A DNA stretch of 64,000 nucleotides from TPA_inf: Saccharomyces (Eukaryota): contig BK006945.2 of the NCBI GenBank assembly GCA_000146045.2, positions 704,001 through 768,000 of the forward strand. The letters are read 5' to 3'. Shown piece after piece: positions 2,198-60,137 of the stretch. The first letter of the stretch is position 1, and each line of letters starts with the position of its first letter. A program made the translations under genes and the position numbers. Under the pieces are notes generated by a model. That model saw nothing but the letters and a program-made list of their open reading frames with translations, was not told the origin of the DNA and did not search any database.

Positions 2198-3040
2198 TCA
2201 TAAACGATGCTTCCTTTGTTTCGAGCCCAGCTGCCTAAATCTTTTTAAGGGCTCTCCATCTACCCAATACTTGAGAGATTCATTTACTTCCACTGAGTTA
2301 GCCTTATTGAATGCATCGATGTGGTTCGATTTCAGCAATTTTTTCATCCCTAAGCAACTGGGCAGGTATAGCCCTTTCACTTTCTCCCTCAATTCTTCTA
2401 AGACCTTTGCATTGAACGCTTCAGCGTTTGAAGATGGCATGTTAAAATTCTTGCTTATAAATCCGTTCTCGCACATTATATCGTACTTGAATGGTTTGTT
2501 GAACATGAGGCATTCATACGTCGTATTTGTGCCAAACTTCAATGGCAAAGAGACCGTTGTACCACCTTCGGTAATTAGTCCTAAGTTAGCAAAGGGGTAT
2601 AGCAAATAAACCTTGTCATTTATACTGTACACAATGTCACATAACGCTACCAGTGCCGCGCTCAACCCTATTGCTGGTCCATTCAAACAGCAAATTAAAA
2701 CTTTGGAATGCTTGATGAAGGCATCAGTGACATAAACATTTCTAGCGACAAAATTTGACACCCACTTGCTTGTTTCCGAAGGATATTTATTGGTATCATC
2801 CCCTTGGGCTTTTGCAATACCCTTGAAATCAGCACCACTGGAAAAAAATCTACCACTGCTTTGTATAATTGTAAAATATACATCACGATTTCTGTCCGCT
2901 AGTTCTAGTAACTCTCCTAAATAAATATAGTCTTCACCTTCTAGTGCATTCAAATTGTCAGGGTTCATTAAGTGAATAATGAAGAATGGTCCTTCAATAC
3001 GATAACTGATTTTCTCATTTTGCCTAATTTCTTGCGACAT
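2198..3040 (-). CDS. ECI1: Peroxisomal delta3,delta2-enoyl-CoA isomerase
   Basis: Translation starts MSQEIRQNEKISYRIEGPFF, giving 280 aa with a crotonase fold. The C-terminal tripeptide HRL is a PTS1-like signal. The ORF track starts 15 codons upstream at 3085, which I treat as an artefact; the true ATG is the 'cat' at 3038-3040. Confidence 0.9.
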   Translation of the reverse strand: MSQEIRQNEKISYRIEGPFFIIHLMNPDNLNALEGEDYIYLGELLELADRNRDVYFTIIQSSGRFFSSGADFKGIAKAQGDDTNKYPSETSKWVSNFVARNVYVTDAFIKHSKVLICCLNGPAIGLSAALVALCDIVYSINDKVYLLYPFANLGLITEGGTTVSLPLKFGTNTTYECLMFNKPFKYDIMCENGFISKNFNMPSSNAEAFNAKVLEELREKVKGLYLPSCLGMKKLLKSNHIDAFNKANSVEVNESLKYWVDGEPLKRFRQLGSKQRKHRL

Positions 3041-3359
3041 ATTGTTCTTCCTTCCTTTACTGTGCGAGCAATTTGTGCCATACACTCCAATTATCTATCC
3101 ATATGTTCATCTTTCAGTTCTTATATATAGTGCTTCACTTTTATTAACCGCTCTTGGGGTAAAAGAGAAACGGTCACTGCTACAGCCTTTCGGAATAATA
3201 TTTCTTATGCCCGTCGCCAATTTCAGATTCTTTCCTTCGTGCCGCATTTATTTTATTTTTCAAAATGACGAGAAGTTAAAATCTAAAATCAGGAAAAAGA
3301 ACAGTTGCAGATGACGAAATACTTCGAGCATTATCGCAATAAATAAGGCGTGTAAACGT

Positions 3360-4145
3360 ATGTCAGATATAGAATCATTGGGAGAGGCAGCAGGTTTATT
3401 TGAGGAGCCAGAGGATTTTCTTCCTCCTCCACCAAAACCTCATTTTGCAGAATATCAAAGGTCACACATCACAAAAGAGTCCAAATCAGATGTTAAAGAC
3501 ATCAAACTCCGTCTCGTTGGAACGTCACCACTTTGGGGTCATCTCTTGTGGAATGCAGGAATATACACCGCAAATCACTTGGATTCTCATCCAGAATTAA
3601 TAAAGGGGAAGACTGTTTTAGAATTGGGTGCTGCTGCTGCTTTACCTTCCGTTATTTGTGCTTTGAATGGGGCTCAAATGGTTGTTTCAACTGATTATCC
3701 AGATCCTGATTTAATGCAGAACATCGATTATAATATAAAGTCTAACGTTCCTGAAGATTTTAATAATGTCAGTACGGAGGGTTATATTTGGGGAAACGAT
3801 TATTCTCCATTGTTGGCACATATCGAAAAAATAGGTAACAATAATGGAAAGTTTGACTTAATCATTTTAAGTGATTTAGTCTTCAATCATACGGAACATC
3901 ACAAATTACTTCAAACAACAAAGGATTTATTAGCTGAGAAAGGTCAGGCGTTGGTAGTATTTTCACCGCATAGACCAAAATTGTTGGAGAAGGATTTAGA
4001 ATTCTTCGAATTGGCTAAGAACGAGTTCCATTTGGTTCCTCAGCTAATTGAAATGGTTAATTGGAAACCGATGTTTGACGAAGACGAGGAAACAATCGAA
4101 GTCAGATCTCGTGTTTATGCGTACTATTTAACACATGAAAAGTAG
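3360..4145 (+). CDS. NNT1: Class I SAM-dependent (protein-lysine) methyltransferase
   Basis: 261 aa with ATG start and a Rossmann-like [12 protein letters not shown] motif. Matches NNT1/EFM7 (YLR285W). Confidence 0.85.
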
Positions 4146-4447
4146 TAAGTGGGCGGAATTGGCATTCTCAACAATCATTTTTATGTTTGTAAACCAGTGT
4201 CCTTTGATATGTAACAATTAAATAAAATAAGTCATGATGGGGCACGAATTCGCAAAATGGTAGAAACACAGTAAATCGAAGAAAATTAAATAATTCGTTA
4301 TAGATATAAAGTAGTCGATTATAAAAACGTAAAAACATGAAGGCAGGGTACCTTGACGAAATAAAAGAGAGGCGGTGAGATGAGGTGAAAAATAAAGAAT
4401 ATTGCAAAAAAAAATATTCGGACTCTATGAATCAATCTCTAATAACT

Positions 4448-6136
4448 TTAAAAGTAATTGCTTTCCAAATAAGAGAAATTACATTGGGTATAGACTGAGT
4501 CGCCGGAGTCATAAGCATAACATGTGGTTCCAGAAGCACATTCCATGTAAACCCAAGCGCTATGATCACAAACGGCGAACTTCCCATCAGCAGAGCATGC
4601 AATTTCACCTTCAGTACAGGTAGATTTACCGTTCAATTTACCAGCCGCATATTGAGCATTCAATTCTTTAGCCAATGTACGAGCTGTACTGTCTGAGCTT
4701 GTACTACCTGAGCTTGTACTACCTGAGCTTGTACTGGTCGTTGTTGGGGAAAGCGTACTAGTAGTAGCTGTCTGTAGGGAAACGACAGAAGAACTCTTCG
4801 TTGCTGGCGAAAGAGTACTAGTGATAGCTGTTTGAATTGGGGCCGAAGAAACTATGCTAGTAGTAGTTGTTTGAGGGGTCACCAAGGCAGCACTGGTTAT
4901 TTGGGAAGATAGAGTAGTTTTCATACTTGTGATAGCAACTGAATTTAAAGTGCTCTCTGTTGTGGTGGTACCTAGACTAGATTTTGTCTTGGTGCTACTC
5001 GTCAATGTTTTTGTAGTTTGAGTAATTGATGTTTTGATAGCGCTGCTTGCAGTTGGAGATAAAGTAACTTTGCTTTTACTTTGTGTAGATGTCGTAGATT
5101 GTGTGGTCTTTTTCTGAGAAGTTGAAGCAGATGAAGTTGAAGCAGATGAAGTTGAGGCTGCTGAGGTTTTTGAGGTGGCAACTGTAGTAGTGGCGGTCTG
5201 GCTAGCACTTGTTAGCAAATTCTTCAAAATCTCAACATATGGTTCACCATTTAGCTCGTTGGAAAAGGCTTGAGATGCATCCCATAACGCAATACCACCA
5301 AAAGAACTTGAAGAGGCAATATCTGCAATAGTTGATTCCAATAAAGAAGTGTCAGAAATATAACCAGAGCCAGCAGCAGAAGCAGAACCAGGTAAACCTA
5401 AGAACAGTTTGATATTTTTATTTGGGGATACAGTTTGAGCATAGGTTAACCAAGTATCCCAATTGAATTGACCACTCACACTGCAGTAATTATTGTAAAA
5501 TTGGATGAACGCAAAATCAATGTCTGCATTTTCCAACAAGTCACCAACAGAAGCATCCGGGTATGGACATTGTGGTGCGGCAGAAAGGTAATATTGCTTT
5601 GTACCTTCGGCAAACAAAGTTCTTAACTTGGTAGCTAACGCACTATAGCCTACTTCGTTGTTGTTTTCAATATCAAAATCAAAACCATCAACGACTGCTG
5701 AGTCAAATGGTCTCTCACTGGCACCTGTACCTTCACCGAAAGTATCCCATAAAGTTTGTGCAAAAGTTTCCGCTTGAGAATCATCTGAAAAGAGGTAGCT
5801 ACCAGATGCACCACCTAATGATAATAGAACTTTCTTTCCTAGGGACTGGCAAGTTTCAATATCTTCAGCAATCTGGGTGCAGTGAAGTAAGCCATCAGAA
5901 AAAGTATCAGAGCATGCGTTGGCAAAGTTCAAACCAAGGGTTGGAAATTGGTTCAAGAAAGATAATAGGAAAATATCAGCATCAGAAGATTCACAGTAAG
6001 TAGCTAAGGATTCTTGCGTTCCTGCTGAGTTTTGACCCCAATAAACAGCAATATTTGTGTTAGCAGACCTATCAAAGGCATCGGTTGGCAGTAGTAAGAA
6101 TTGTGTGAATAGAAGAATGATGTAAAGGAGTGACAT
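4448..6136 (-). CDS. CTS1: Endochitinase: GH18 catalytic domain, Ser/Thr-rich linker and C-terminal chitin-binding domain
   Basis: 562 aa. N-terminal signal peptide and the GH18 motif (DGFDFDIE). A long S/T-rich O-glycosylation linker, encoded by tandem DNA repeats, precedes a Cys-rich C-terminal domain. Confidence 0.97.
   Translation of the reverse strand: MSLLYIILLFTQFLLLPTDAFDRSANTNIAVYWGQNSAGTQESLATYCESSDADIFLLSFLNQFPTLGLNFANACSDTFSDGLLHCTQIAEDIETCQSLGKKVLLSLGGASGSYLFSDDSQAETFAQTLWDTFGEGTGASERPFDSAVVDGFDFDIENNNEVGYSALATKLRTLFAEGTKQYYLSAAPQCPYPDASVGDLLENADIDFAFIQFYNNYCSVSGQFNWDTWLTYAQTVSPNKNIKLFLGLPGSASAAGSGYISDTSLLESTIADIASSSSFGGIALWDASQAFSNELNGEPYVEILKNLLTSASQTATTTVATSKTSAASTSSASTSSASTSQKKTTQSTTSTQSKSKVTLSPTASSAIKTSITQTTKTLTSSTKTKSSLGTTTTESTLNSVAITSMKTTLSSQITSAALVTPQTTTTSIVSSAPIQTAITSTLSPATKSSSVVSLQTATTSTLSPTTTSTSSGSTSSGSTSSDSTARTLAKELNAQYAAGKLNGKSTCTEGEIACSADGKFAVCDHSAWVYMECASGTTCYAYDSGDSVYTQCNFSYLESNYF
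4681..4739. repeat. Intragenic 15-bp tandem repeat (about 4 units, gagcttgtactacct) encoding an SGSTSSGST/SDST repeat in the CTS1 linker
   Basis: Direct visual repeat: gagctgtactgtct / gagcttgtactacct / gagcttgtactacct / gagcttgtactggtc. Confidence 0.9.
5117..5163. repeat. Intragenic 15-bp tandem repeat (3 units, gaagttgaagcagat) encoding SASTSSASTSSASTS in the CTS1 linker
   Basis: Three consecutive 15-nt units; the last unit is diverged (gaagttgaggctgct). Confidence 0.9.
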
Positions 6137-55458: not shown

Positions 55459-56241
<783 letters not shown>

Positions 56242-56749
56242 AGATACAAAAAATATAGTTGATGGTTCACTGGCCAAAAATGTATAAAAGAAAAATTTAT
56301 CTGTAAATAGTGATCGAAATAAAATAAGATAATAACTAAAGAATATATATGACTTTACTGTACAGATCTATAATTGAAAAATGACGAGAGGTCCTGTGAA
56401 AGAGTCTGCCTGTTCGCCATCTTCACACATTCAACCAATTCCCTGGTGCGCTTGGTTACTTCCATCAGGATATCTGCTAATTTTTGATAGAATCGTTTCT
56501 TCCCAAGCTTTGTGGAATCGCATCCATAAGTACACAATTCCGATAACTTTTGCGAGCAATCTGTGAGCCTTTCAATAATTTCTTTACAGTGCTCGCCTAA
56601 ATCCAGTTTAAAACTTTTTTGGACCATTGCTTTGGTAGTCATATCAATCACCGATTCCAAAATAGGAATAATCTCGATGGAATTTTGACATAATCTCGAA
56701 ACTGATCTTGCGGACTTGAACAATTTTGATTTAGAGGCTTGAACATCAT

Positions 56750-58342
56750 TCAAAATGCCCTGCCTGCCATAGGAAGAACAACCATTGATTTACTCTCAAC
56801 AAATTCGACGAGGTTATTTATGTTAGCGTTGTGCGTGGTTGAGTTGACATCAGAATTATTCAAGTTTTCTTCTGAAGTAGATATTCTTAATCCAAGACCA
56901 GAGTTGGGAGCAAATTTCTGCACTTTCTCTCTGAATTTCCTCATTTTGGTCACGGTTGGCGAGTAAAGTACGTCTGCAGCTGGCGGAATATTTGCATACG
57001 GCTTCGCCGTTTCTGCCACTGGTTTAGTGATAACTTTCTTCGGAGGTGATGCCTGATAATCCTGCCGAAATTTACCAATTAGCGGCAATGTGTTACCTTG
57101 AGGACTTGGACTTCTCGAGTTCGAGACAACTTTCAGAGGCAAACCTTCTCGCGGAGATGGCTCACTCGTAATTCTTGAAGAATTCTTAGTGTTTTTTAAC
57201 GGCGACACAGACGCTAAGTTTGTTTCTCCAGATGTATTATTTCGTACCTTCCCACTCTCTCGAATAGAAGATTCAGATTTTTCTATGATGGAAATTGATG
57301 GCGATGCTACAACCACTGGCATGTCCGATTTTTTTGTAATGGGCTTACCAGAGGATGGAAAACTAACAGCAGTACTACCGCTATCACCCAGAGATGATAT
57401 ATCCTTACCGTTTTTCTCATTTTTCACTTTTTCAATAATCTTCAACGGTTTCATACCTGCCTCGATATCACTGAGTTCTCCTTCATTGCGTGATATATCA
57501 TCACGTGAGGTGGATTTGATCTTCACAATCTGAGCAATATTGCAGAACGCAAAAATCACTTCCGAAATAGATGATTGAGCTACAATTCGTGGTATTAGGT
57601 CCCCATATGTGAGAAAATATCTTGTTGAAGTGATAGCATGAGATAAAGCACTCTTTAAGTATACTATTTCGTTTTCTAAAGAACTTTGCAGTGAAACTGA
57701 TGATAGGACAGGTAAGAGATCGCCTATCAACTTTGCTATCTTAATTATAGTCTCAAGCAGAATCGGCAGGCGTGTGGTGGTGGTATCCACAGGATCAATT
57801 CGATGGAGCGTGTTTTGAAAATAAAGTGTAAATTGAGTTTTTAATTCTCGGAAGACTTCAATGGATATAATACCATTCACGCTCATAAAATCATCGTTTA
57901 TTTTGAAGGATTCAAATAATGTGTCATTTAAATAGAAATTTAGATCACCCTCGTCTAACCCATTGTTATGCGTCCCCATATCCAAATGATGTAAGTTTCT
58001 CCTTTCAATTTCCGTGAAAATATCAAGAATCAATTTATGGAACTTCGCGTCCTTCAATCGAGACAGTTTAGATTGTGCTTTACCTCTTTTCAGATCAAGA
58101 TCATTTAGTGATGCATCCGCACCCGAATCTGTCAATCTTTTCATCAATTCATCGTTGACATCAGTCGTCAGTTGCCAAAATTGTACATTCGACAATTTTG
58201 TCAGGTCTTTATTTCTATTTTGGCGGTTTTGGTTCCTTCTTCTATCATCTTCTGGTACAGAGGCCTCTATAATTCTTTTGAAATTCTTATAATCCGATAT
58301 AAGGTCTATGATTTGATCATTCGTTAATTCTGAGCTAATCAT
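56750..58342 (-). CDS. SPH1: Spa2-homolog polarisome protein. The 530-aa reading frame stops here, with an abutting out-of-frame 132-codon ORF (56355-56753) downstream
   Basis: N-terminal Spa2-homology domain (MISSELTNDQIIDLISDYKNFKRIIEASVPEDDRRRNQNRQNRNKDLTKLSNVQFWQLTTDVNDELMKRLTD). The ORF ends ...VVLPMAGRAF*. The next ORF on the same strand begins 4 nt before that stop, in the frame one step along. Confidence 0.85.
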   Translation of the reverse strand: MISSELTNDQIIDLISDYKNFKRIIEASVPEDDRRRNQNRQNRNKDLTKLSNVQFWQLTTDVNDELMKRLTDSGADASLNDLDLKRGKAQSKLSRLKDAKFHKLILDIFTEIERRNLHHLDMGTHNNGLDEGDLNFYLNDTLFESFKINDDFMSVNGIISIEVFRELKTQFTLYFQNTLHRIDPVDTTTTRLPILLETIIKIAKLIGDLLPVLSSVSLQSSLENEIVYLKSALSHAITSTRYFLTYGDLIPRIVAQSSISEVIFAFCNIAQIVKIKSTSRDDISRNEGELSDIEAGMKPLKIIEKVKNEKNGKDISSLGDSGSTAVSFPSSGKPITKKSDMPVVVASPSISIIEKSESSIRESGKVRNNTSGETNLASVSPLKNTKNSSRITSEPSPREGLPLKVVSNSRSPSPQGNTLPLIGKFRQDYQASPPKKVITKPVAETAKPYANIPPAADVLYSPTVTKMRKFREKVQKFAPNSGLGLRISTSEENLNNSDVNSTTHNANINNLVEFVESKSMVVLPMAGRAF

Positions 58343-58574: not shown

Positions 58575-60137
58575 CTAACGTAAAAATCCCTTCTTCTTTG
58601 TAGGGACGGGGGAGTGGTTAACATTGGGAGAAGCACTATTTATTGAAAGTTCTAGCTGTTTTTTCTTGTCCTCCAAAGCTTTTAATTGTTTAGTTAATTT
58701 TTCCTTCATTTCTTTATGTCTAGCAAACAATTCAGTTTCTGATTTTTGTAGTTTTTTCTCCTTTTCGGAAACTTTTTGTTGGAAAACTGTTTTCATTTCA
58801 ATTTCTAGTTTGGCTAGTTTTGCCTCATGTAAAGTTTTTTCTTCTTGTTGTTTAGATATTGGATCGAACTCTTTGAAAACTGAATTATCTTGCTTAATAC
58901 CAAGTTTTGCCAATTTAGAAGACCTGTAGTTTTCGTATAGTATCTTGCTTGTCCTTTCCTTTAATTCCTCCATGAATTGCTTGATCAATAAATTTTTCAA
59001 AAGGTTGAAATCAGAGTGGTTGTCATTGTCCACTTCGATCACCCCCCATGGATAGGAACGGCCTCTCACTTGATTACCACTGTAGTTCTCTACAATATCG
59101 TTGGAACCAATAACAGCATAAGGTAAACTACTAAATAGTCTTTCGGATAAATGGCTATTTTCTGCATCATCGTTGGAATAAATTGGAGGCTTGAACAGCT
59201 CGATATTAGATTGGATTAACTGGTTCATAATGGTCTTCTTGAAACTTAAGATCTCTTCATCAGTTAAGATGTCAGATTTAGCAATGACAGGAATCAAGTT
59301 ACATTTTTCATATACAGATTGCATAAACTTCAGGTCCAGGGGCTTTAAGTAATGTCCTGTAGGTTCAATGAAATAAAGACATGCATGGATTCTTTTATCG
59401 TTTATTGAATGTCTGTTGATTTTGTTCTCCGCATCCAAGTATTGATCAAAACGAGAGTCAATCTCCTTAATGATCGGGTCCCATGATTTTTGATCATTAT
59501 TTAAAAAATCACCAAATCCTTCAGTATCGATCACGTTCAAATTCAGTTTAACACCATTTTCTTCAATAACCGACTCATATGACTTAATTTTGACCTTGTG
59601 CCTTTGTTCTTGTGATTGGTTCTCGTGACCCTCGCCCTGACCCTCCTCTTCTTCCTGATCATTTGCAAGTTCCTCCTCGTAATCTTTCACTAAATTGGCC
59701 TCAATATCATCATTATTAAATAAAGTTTTCATTAAAGTTGTCTTACCAATACCATCAGGGCCGACACATAGGAGATTGAAACTGAATCCGTTCTTTATGG
59801 ACCTTCTGTGCCATTGCTTGGGCAAATTAGCAAACCCTACATAACCATTGATTTGACGACGAATGAACTTAATCTCCGGTTGGTCAGGCAGAACTTGACC
59901 CTTTTCGCTCTGAGAGGAGGTGATGCCCATACCGAGGCCGGGTTCCACCTTTACATCGGATTCAGCTGCCTCAAATCTCTCGCTGTCGTCATTTTGCGTA
60001 CCGTTCGTGTACTGCGAGTCCACTCCATCATGATCCTGCGACTCTTGTTTGATCTGAACATCATTGAATTGATCATGCTGACGCTCTTCTTGTTCCGGGT
60101 CCTGCTTAATGGACACTTGTTCCTCCTTTAAACTCAT
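58575..60137 (-). CDS. CDC3: Septin
   Basis: 520 aa. Septin GTPase motifs (GPDGIGKTT, DTEGFGD) and a C-terminal coiled coil. Confidence 0.96.
   Translation of the reverse strand: MSLKEEQVSIKQDPEQEERQHDQFNDVQIKQESQDHDGVDSQYTNGTQNDDSERFEAAESDVKVEPGLGMGITSSQSEKGQVLPDQPEIKFIRRQINGYVGFANLPKQWHRRSIKNGFSFNLLCVGPDGIGKTTLMKTLFNNDDIEANLVKDYEEELANDQEEEEGQGEGHENQSQEQRHKVKIKSYESVIEENGVKLNLNVIDTEGFGDFLNNDQKSWDPIIKEIDSRFDQYLDAENKINRHSINDKRIHACLYFIEPTGHYLKPLDLKFMQSVYEKCNLIPVIAKSDILTDEEILSFKKTIMNQLIQSNIELFKPPIYSNDDAENSHLSERLFSSLPYAVIGSNDIVENYSGNQVRGRSYPWGVIEVDNDNHSDFNLLKNLLIKQFMEELKERTSKILYENYRSSKLAKLGIKQDNSVFKEFDPISKQQEEKTLHEAKLAKLEIEMKTVFQQKVSEKEKKLQKSETELFARHKEMKEKLTKQLKALEDKKKQLELSINSASPNVNHSPVPTKKKGFLR

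Follow-up and report, generated by a model that had tools for sequence, protein, structure and literature searches.

The window analysed here is a 64,000-nucleotide stretch of the Saccharomyces cerevisiae genome in which SPH1 (YLR313C) occupies positions 56750..58342 of the minus strand as an open reading frame (ORF) of 530 codons followed by TGA. SPH1 is the whole-genome-duplication paralogue of SPA2, which encodes a polarisome scaffold. It lies between a septin gene on its upstream side (58575..60137) and a gene for an RNase III-domain protein on its downstream side (55480..56241), and all of the related loci have these same two genes as neighbours. The 3' end of the SPH1 ORF reads ...ATG GCA GGC AGG GCA TTT TGA, with the stop codon at 56750..56752 (minus strand). 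A second ORF of 132 codons (56355..56753, minus strand) starts with TTG AAT GAT, overlaps the SPH1 TGA by 4 nt and is offset from the SPH1 frame by -1/+2. The initial annotation had recognized both ORFs, adjoining one another on the same strand in different frames, and both sets of coordinates are confirmed. The TAA that bounds the downstream frame at its upstream end (56790..56792, minus strand) is, however, 13 codons above the TTG rather than the approximately 10 codons first estimated. The TTG 'start' of the 132-codon ORF is itself artefactual, as the ORF finder applied a bacterial genetic code table.

The 530-aa product is identical, residue for residue, to Sph1p of S. cerevisiae S288C (RefSeq NP_013417.3), and the window carries the S288C reference allele without any difference. 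The same 530-aa protein has been reported for CEN.PK113-7D. A search against Pfam identified the GIT_SHD domain (PF08518) in two repeats of this product, with an E value of 8.5e-12 and a score of 44.9 bits against a cutoff of 21.1. The best-scoring repeat, which represents Spa2 homology domain I, comprises residues 91-116 (57995..58072, minus strand) and is kept in the truncated protein. Among the Saccharomyces orthologs, the best-conserved block of Sph1 lies at residues ~222-276. In addition, 42% identity was reported between YSCL8543.8 and the 'Spa2 box' region, or SHD-II (Arkowitz and Lowe, 1997; PMC2139937).

The downstream ORF is real coding sequence and not a chance reading frame. It encodes the C-terminal domain of the Spa2/GIT proteins, SHD-V or GIT1_C, which corresponds to ancestral codons 527-648 (56397..56762, minus strand) and is supported by Pfam, profile search, BLASTP and dN/dS. 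The Pfam model GIT1_C (PF12205) matched all six of the Saccharomyces copies examined, with a best E value of 1.5e-7; the copy in the window reached 4e-5 and 24.2 bits, just under the 25-bit cutoff. An exhaustive search of 1.84 billion representative sequences with a profile of the domain found 167 proteins at E<=0.001, nearly all of which matched at the extreme C-terminus of proteins of 1,000-1,800 aa. In those profile-matched proteins that were scanned, the N-terminus carries GIT_SHD and the C-terminus carries GIT1_C, and one of the clusters bears the name Spa2p. The profile matched Spa2 C-termini with E values of 1e-13 to 1e-17. In a BLASTP comparison, the ORF in the window aligned to positions 1357-1446 of the 1461-residue Spa2p of M. 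servazzii, with 31% identity across 91 aa (E=1e-9). Between the five species with an intact gene, the downstream region contains no stops and has a dN/dS of 0.20-0.46, compared with 0.35-0.60 in the disordered middle of Sph1 and 0.14-0.29 in its N-terminus. Together, the homology to GIT1_C and Spa2 and the conservation of the frame uphold the initial proposal that the downstream 131-132 codons are an ancestral SPH1 C-terminus lost by frameshift.

The Spa2 homologues were reached through the exhaustive profile search and not through word-indexed searching; when a word-indexed protein database was queried with the 132-aa ORF and then with the domain alignment, only one fragment was returned. A sequence-profile search of the PDB with the domain found nothing. 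The AlphaFold2 model of the domain is all-helical and of moderate confidence (pLDDT 70). A Foldseek comparison of this model with the PDB gave no match at E<=0.001, and the best TM-scores, none of which reached that threshold, were 0.57-0.64 to vinculin-tail and alpha-catenin bundles. A FAT-like bundle of the GIT1/FAK type was thus confirmed by neither of these two PDB searches. While homologous to the SHD-V of Spa2, the Sph1 copy is more divergent than that of Spa2, in keeping with the 24.2 bits scored in the window. In Spa2, SHD-V is sufficient for Hof1 binding in a two-hybrid assay and is one of several fragments with which Chs2 interacts. The C-terminal half of Spa2 also contributes to its recruitment at the site of division (PMC5895073).

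The two frames are separated by an insertion of two nucleotides. In a nucleotide alignment with four 648-aa Sph1 loci, the sole length difference is a GG at 56763..56764 (minus strand), which falls between ancestral codons 526 (GCA) and 527 (CAG) as ATGGCA[GG]CAGGGC. The SPH1 ORF of the window is ancestral through codons 1-526, beyond which codons 527-530 (G R A F) form a frameshifted tail. The GG is missing from the four 648-aa S. cerevisiae loci, from two additional loci (L001 and L018) and from five other aligned Saccharomyces ortholog loci; it is carried by L006-L009, L019 and L020. A difference in junction length from other strains and species had been predicted and was found, although the lesion is not the single-nucleotide indel within a run of G/C or T that had been proposed. 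Instead, it is a 2-nt insertion at a site outside any homopolymer. The GG has a unique placement, flanked by A and C, and so did not arise as a homopolymer slip. Moreover, the nearby GGG run (56760-56758) and TTTT run (56755-56752) have the same length as in intact alleles. The insertion changes CA-CAGG to CAGG-CAGG, so a repeat-templated event is possible.

In the 648-aa S. cerevisiae alleles, the protein reads ...PM(A/V)QGIL... through the junction, as it does in the five intact orthologs, all of which conform to ...PM(A/V)Q(G/K/D)IL.... Without the GG, the SPH1 junction would read ATGGCACAGGGC. The 648-aa and 661-aa alleles and the five orthologs encode SHD-V/GIT1_C in one continuous frame with the preceding part of Sph1. 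In the window, by contrast, the domain is present in the DNA but lies out of frame behind the GG and the TGA. When the GG is removed, the window sequence matches UniProt Q06160.2 exactly.

Any indel able to fuse the two ORFs must lie within an interval of 37 nt (56753-56789), the upper limit of which is set by the TAA. Within it, a 1-nt insertion would yield a protein of 662 aa and a 2-nt deletion one of 661 aa. The earlier statement that a single 1-nt indel would produce a fusion of about 661 aa thus holds for an insertion, to within one residue, but not for a deletion, which reads straight into GAA TGA. The same overlap raises the question of programmed ribosomal frameshifting (-1 or +2), by which full-length Sph1 would be restored; in its favour, neither frame is closed over 37 nt, and the stop is preceded by a run of T. 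The overlap nevertheless contains no in-register X XXY YYZ heptamer and no +1 site of the Ty1, Ty3 or OAZ type (CTTAGGC, GCGAGTT, CTTAGTT), and a +1 slip on TTTT would encounter GAA TGA. Ribosome-footprint evidence for the 3' end, including the terminal extension, was rated 'low' by Andreatta et al. (2015; PMC4494051). Furthermore, all five intact orthologs and most strains have a single frame, which indicates that the split arose by recent mutation and does not reflect a recoding signal under conservation. Programmed frameshifting at this junction is accordingly regarded as very improbable.

Scarcely more credible is the expression of the downstream ORF alone as a free-standing SHD-V protein, for instance from the internal ATG at codon 567. 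Annotation pipelines do call products of 90, 95 and 132 aa, the 95-aa product from the ATG at codon 567 is annotated in CEN.PK113-7D and in ScRAP assemblies, and the sequence of the domain is still intact. However, the ORF has no evident promoter, lies inside the SPH1 transcript and would need reinitiation after a 530-codon ORF, which is very unlikely in yeast, and the TTG start is a product of bacterial-code ORF finding. The state of the domain also has another explanation: the variants among GG haplotypes are mostly synonymous, but since several are common to intact alleles, they reflect past and not current constraint.

The alignment of alleles and species further indicates that the window has a second derived feature. 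Ancestral codon 649 is CAG in the window (56394..56396, minus strand) and represents a stop loss; all of the 648-aa alleles of S. cerevisiae and all other species, including S. mikatae with its decayed copy, have TAG or TAA at this position. From this distribution, the ancestral Sph1 had 648 aa, and not the approximately 661 aa initially suggested for the fused protein. On the evidence of this alignment, the 661-aa form ends in 13 codons of former 3'UTR that was opened by a TAG>CAG change. The further 12 codons and TAA at 56355..56393 (minus strand) are read only in the 661-aa allele, which lacks GG and has CAG649. The F541 of the window sequence, by contrast, is ancestral, and the Y541 of the 648-aa alleles sampled is derived.

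Three forms of the gene can then be compared. The 648-aa allele, which is that of Arkowitz and Lowe (1997; AF008236), K7_Sph1p and most ScRAP strains, is the same gene as that of the window. It differs in lacking GG, having TAG at codon 649, possessing Y541 instead of F541 and retaining an intact SHD-V, and only 5 positions over the length of the gene separate the nearest example (P0005, L002-L005) from the window. The 661-aa 'Protein SPH1' of UniProt Q06160 and GenBank AAB64516.2 equals the window sequence minus GG and is not the product of the window; the 13 residues at its end are not ancestral but were added by stop loss in a particular lineage. It is nonetheless a real allele in one read assembly (ERR15089278, locus L018), where SPH1 is that of the window minus GG and encodes the exact 661-aa UniProt sequence. 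This contig comes from a different strain, given that its upstream flank has 5 SNPs relative to the window. The most parsimonious order of events is probably 648 aa to 661 aa by stop loss, followed by 530 aa by GG insertion. Placing the stop loss first depends on the single read-assembled contig L018, which may alternatively represent a precise reversion of the GG.

The existence of the 661-aa entries bears on a further explanation, which is that the GG is a sequencing or assembly error and that the true S288C gene lacks the extra bases and encodes one continuous 661-aa protein. UniProt Q06160.2 and GenBank AAB64516.2 list this length for S288C, and two published analyses have used it (PMC4494051; PMC3240633). 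Against it, 64 blocks of the collection contain precisely this 530-aa protein, and they include chromosome-scale NCBI assemblies and independent read assemblies. Four of the loci (L006-L009), from different projects (two NCBI chromosome-scale and two read assemblies), match the window over 2,288 nt, and the 132-aa downstream ORF has been called separately on 46 contigs. The GG is also found on two further, diverged haplotypes and stands outside the homopolymers, where such errors concentrate. Finally, the current RefSeq protein is the 530-aa form. With the identical allele in so many independent assemblies, an error is highly unlikely, and the lesion is taken to be genuine.

Restriction of the lesion to laboratory strains of the S288C type, which had also been suggested, does not agree with its distribution. 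GG together with CAG649 occurs on at least three haplotypes, namely those of the window, L019 and L020. Compared with the window, L020 has 6 differing sites within the gene and one upstream of the ATG, and L019 has 13 differing sites within the gene. L019 is strain CBM, a wild diploid in the ScRAP panel, and in the human clinical isolate CHS_3a the downstream ORF is annotated separately. What S288C inherited is a natural polymorphism and not a laboratory mutation or an error. Other natural loss-of-function polymorphisms are present in S288C, such as the flo8 nonsense allele. SPH1 resembles these in that the reference strain carries a disabling variant of a gene that is intact in most isolates. 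Unlike the flo8-type alleles, SPH1 loses only its C-terminal domain, and the carriers include wild and clinical isolates. When metagenome contigs were scanned for the two versions of the junction, a single contig of the intact type was recovered, which is too few for an allele census. The split gene on the metagenome contig L001 (462 aa + 185 aa) was considered as a second frameshift and rejected, the interruption being a run of 10 Ns in the scaffold.

The variation among GG alleles suggests that the domain has been out of frame for only a short time. The ancestral frame of the GG alleles of S. cerevisiae shows none of the additional stops or indels expected in a decaying pseudogene. The variants among them are mostly synonymous in that frame, and several are common to intact alleles, from which the GG insertion looks young and SHD-V has not yet started to decay. 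In L019, variants are concentrated downstream of the frameshift (9 in 410 nt versus 4 in 1,578 nt; Fisher p=0.0002). Relaxed constraint was considered as the cause and set aside, as six of the eight changed downstream codons are synonymous in the ancestral frame and the other two, which do alter the residue (A568, C576), are also known from intact alleles. The excess is better read as the result of recombination with an intact haplotype of divergent sequence.

Overall, the window most probably contains an S288C-type SPH1 allele in which a GG inserted after codon 526 shifts the frame, truncates the protein to 530 aa and strands SHD-V, an interpretation to which a probability of about 0.93 is assigned. 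Direct evidence establishes the lesion together with its polarity and reproducibility, and also identifies the domain. In the proposed sequence of events, the insertion would lead translation through four foreign residues, GRAF, to the TGA. The resulting Sph1-530 would keep the GIT_SHD repeats of the N-terminus and the putative 'Spa2 box' region for localisation and would be without the C-terminal helical domain of ~120 residues. The 132-codon ORF consists of a nearly undecayed SHD-V and 13 codons of former 3'UTR that derive from the probably earlier TAG>CAG stop loss. The 354 nt from the premature stop to the position of the ancestral stop would lengthen the 3'UTR, and nonsense-mediated decay may lower the level of the mRNA. 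Judged from the sequence, the 530-aa protein is the form likely to be made, with which the 'low' footprint evidence for the terminal extension agrees, although indirectly.

The frameshift of SPH1 in S288C has been known since 1997 and is already included in the current reference annotation. Arkowitz and Lowe (1997; PMC2139937) cloned SPH1 by PCR and described differences that involved a frameshift and a stop, and their SPH1 sequence showed C-terminal homology to Spa2p, with 28% identity over the last 84 residues. The two differences detected in the present analysis are the ones that they described. From the accession versions and the lengths used in published analyses, the reference annotation appears to have gone from 530 to 661 and back to 530 aa, the current RefSeq Sph1 being version.3 at 530 aa. 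SPH1 is not mentioned in the description of the reference-genome update (Engel et al., 2014) or in two of its supplements. At least two reports based on the 661-aa form can be reread in this light. Fitzpatrick et al. (2011; PMC3240633) classed Q649TAG of strain 74-D694 among nonsense mutations that inactivate the gene, but this 'inactivating' TAG at codon 649 is the ancestral stop. Similarly, Andreatta et al. (2015; PMC4494051) listed SPH1 as gaining 13 residues by point mutation, a de novo C-terminal addition, and this tail lies downstream of the frameshift in the S288C sequence of the window. The importance of the finding is thus mainly one of bookkeeping, in that Sph1 is in circulation at three lengths, RefSeq giving 530 aa and UniProt 661 aa, with most strains having 648 aa.

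The functional consequences of the truncation may be partial. Deletion of SPH1 reduces shmoo formation and abolishes bipolar budding in diploids, and Sph1-GFP localises like Spa2 (Arkowitz and Lowe, 1997; PMC2139937). Sph1-530 would be expected to lose whatever SHD-V contributes, but it should still reach sites of polarised growth, since the domains implicated in localisation and Spa2-like function are kept. In the deletion collection, which is derived from S288C, sph1-delta suppresses the cortical-ER defect of ptc1-delta and lowers Slt2 activation (PMC3784387). The presence of sph1-delta phenotypes in the BY background suggests that the truncated Sph1 appears to keep part of its function. That BY strains carry the 530-aa allele is assumed from their S288C ancestry.

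Loss of this domain is not confined to S. cerevisiae. In S. mikatae, the Sph1 C-terminal domain was independently lost and has decayed, with several stops and indels, as is typical of a decaying pseudogene. The five intact orthologs, from S. uvarum, S. eubayanus and three further Saccharomyces lineages, all stop at the same codon. A tentative proposal, held to be somewhat less probable than its converse, is that Sph1 is repeatedly shedding SHD-V/GIT1_C in Saccharomyces, with a young segregating GG allele in S. cerevisiae and an older, independent and decayed loss in S. mikatae. The paralogue might then be undergoing reduction to an N-terminal scaffold as Spa2 makes the domain dispensable or its loss is favoured. 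If this is true, the 648-, 661- and 530-aa forms of S. cerevisiae would constitute a natural allelic series for dissecting the role of SHD-V. More immediately, polarisome work in BY/S288C strains probably uses an Sph1 without SHD-V, and results on Sph1 function may not transfer across backgrounds, for example between strains derived from SEY6210 (648 aa) and BY strains (530 aa).

The 661-aa form of SPH1 recorded in UniProt is a real allele. A locus assembled in Logan from ERR15089278 (L018, positions 3001-4986) carries a gene that matches that of the window except for the absence of the GG insertion, with no other difference within the gene, and its product is identical to UniProt Q06160.2. 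The upstream flank of this locus, on the CDC3 side, differs from the window by five SNPs. The L018 allele is likely to represent the immediate progenitor of the S288C allele. In addition, a convergent gene encoding an RNase III-domain protein lies downstream of SPH1 (window 55480-56241, plus strand), with counterparts in L002-L009. Across the window and these loci, the predicted product is either 253 or 249 aa long, depending on the assembly, which probably reflects the choice of different start codons by gene callers.

The GG insertion is also present in the wild isolate CBM (L019), where positions 2379-2788 align with window 56355-56764. From the insertion onward, this haplotype differs from the window at 9 positions in 410 nt, compared with 4 in the preceding 1,578 nt (Fisher p=0.0002). 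One of the nine converts the premature stop from TGA in the window to TAA. Such an excess might be attributed to decay. The majority of the differences, however, are synonymous in the ancestral frame, the single frame of the 648-aa protein, and two are common to intact alleles, which suggests that recombination rather than decay was responsible. A split SPH1 in the metagenome scaffold L001, with products of 462 and 185 aa, was considered as a further frameshift allele and rejected. It is a scaffolding artefact that resembles one, because a run of 10 Ns (L001:1488-1497) shifts the frame and leads the gene caller to divide the gene in two.

In S. mikatae, the annotated Sph1 ortholog is 513 aa long, and a remnant of the Spa2-like C-terminal domain SHD-V follows its stop (L010:3040-3520, IFO 1815 assembly GCA_947241705.1; L011, an independent ENA assembly). 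Fragments including SMVQK, SIVDTYTKVMDQDNSK and FDVSKCAKKFIKSVELANE are still discernible, but they are spread over all three frames and interrupted by several stops and by deletions of 10-25 nt. The two assemblies are identical in this region, although both may derive from the same source strain. Judged by this remnant, the loss of SHD-V in S. mikatae is separate from, and older than, that in S. cerevisiae.

The codon CAG at window 56394-56396 (minus strand) is TAG or TAA in the 648-aa S. cerevisiae alleles and in all other species compared, and by this comparison it is the derived state, a lost stop. The ancestral TAG at this position has been scored as an inactivating mutation (PMC3240633), and the 13-aa Sph1 tail has been counted as a translated de novo extension (PMC4494051). 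In both studies, the polarity or status of the site was taken from the 661-aa annotation, and the tail counted in the latter sits behind the frameshift in the S288C sequence of the window.
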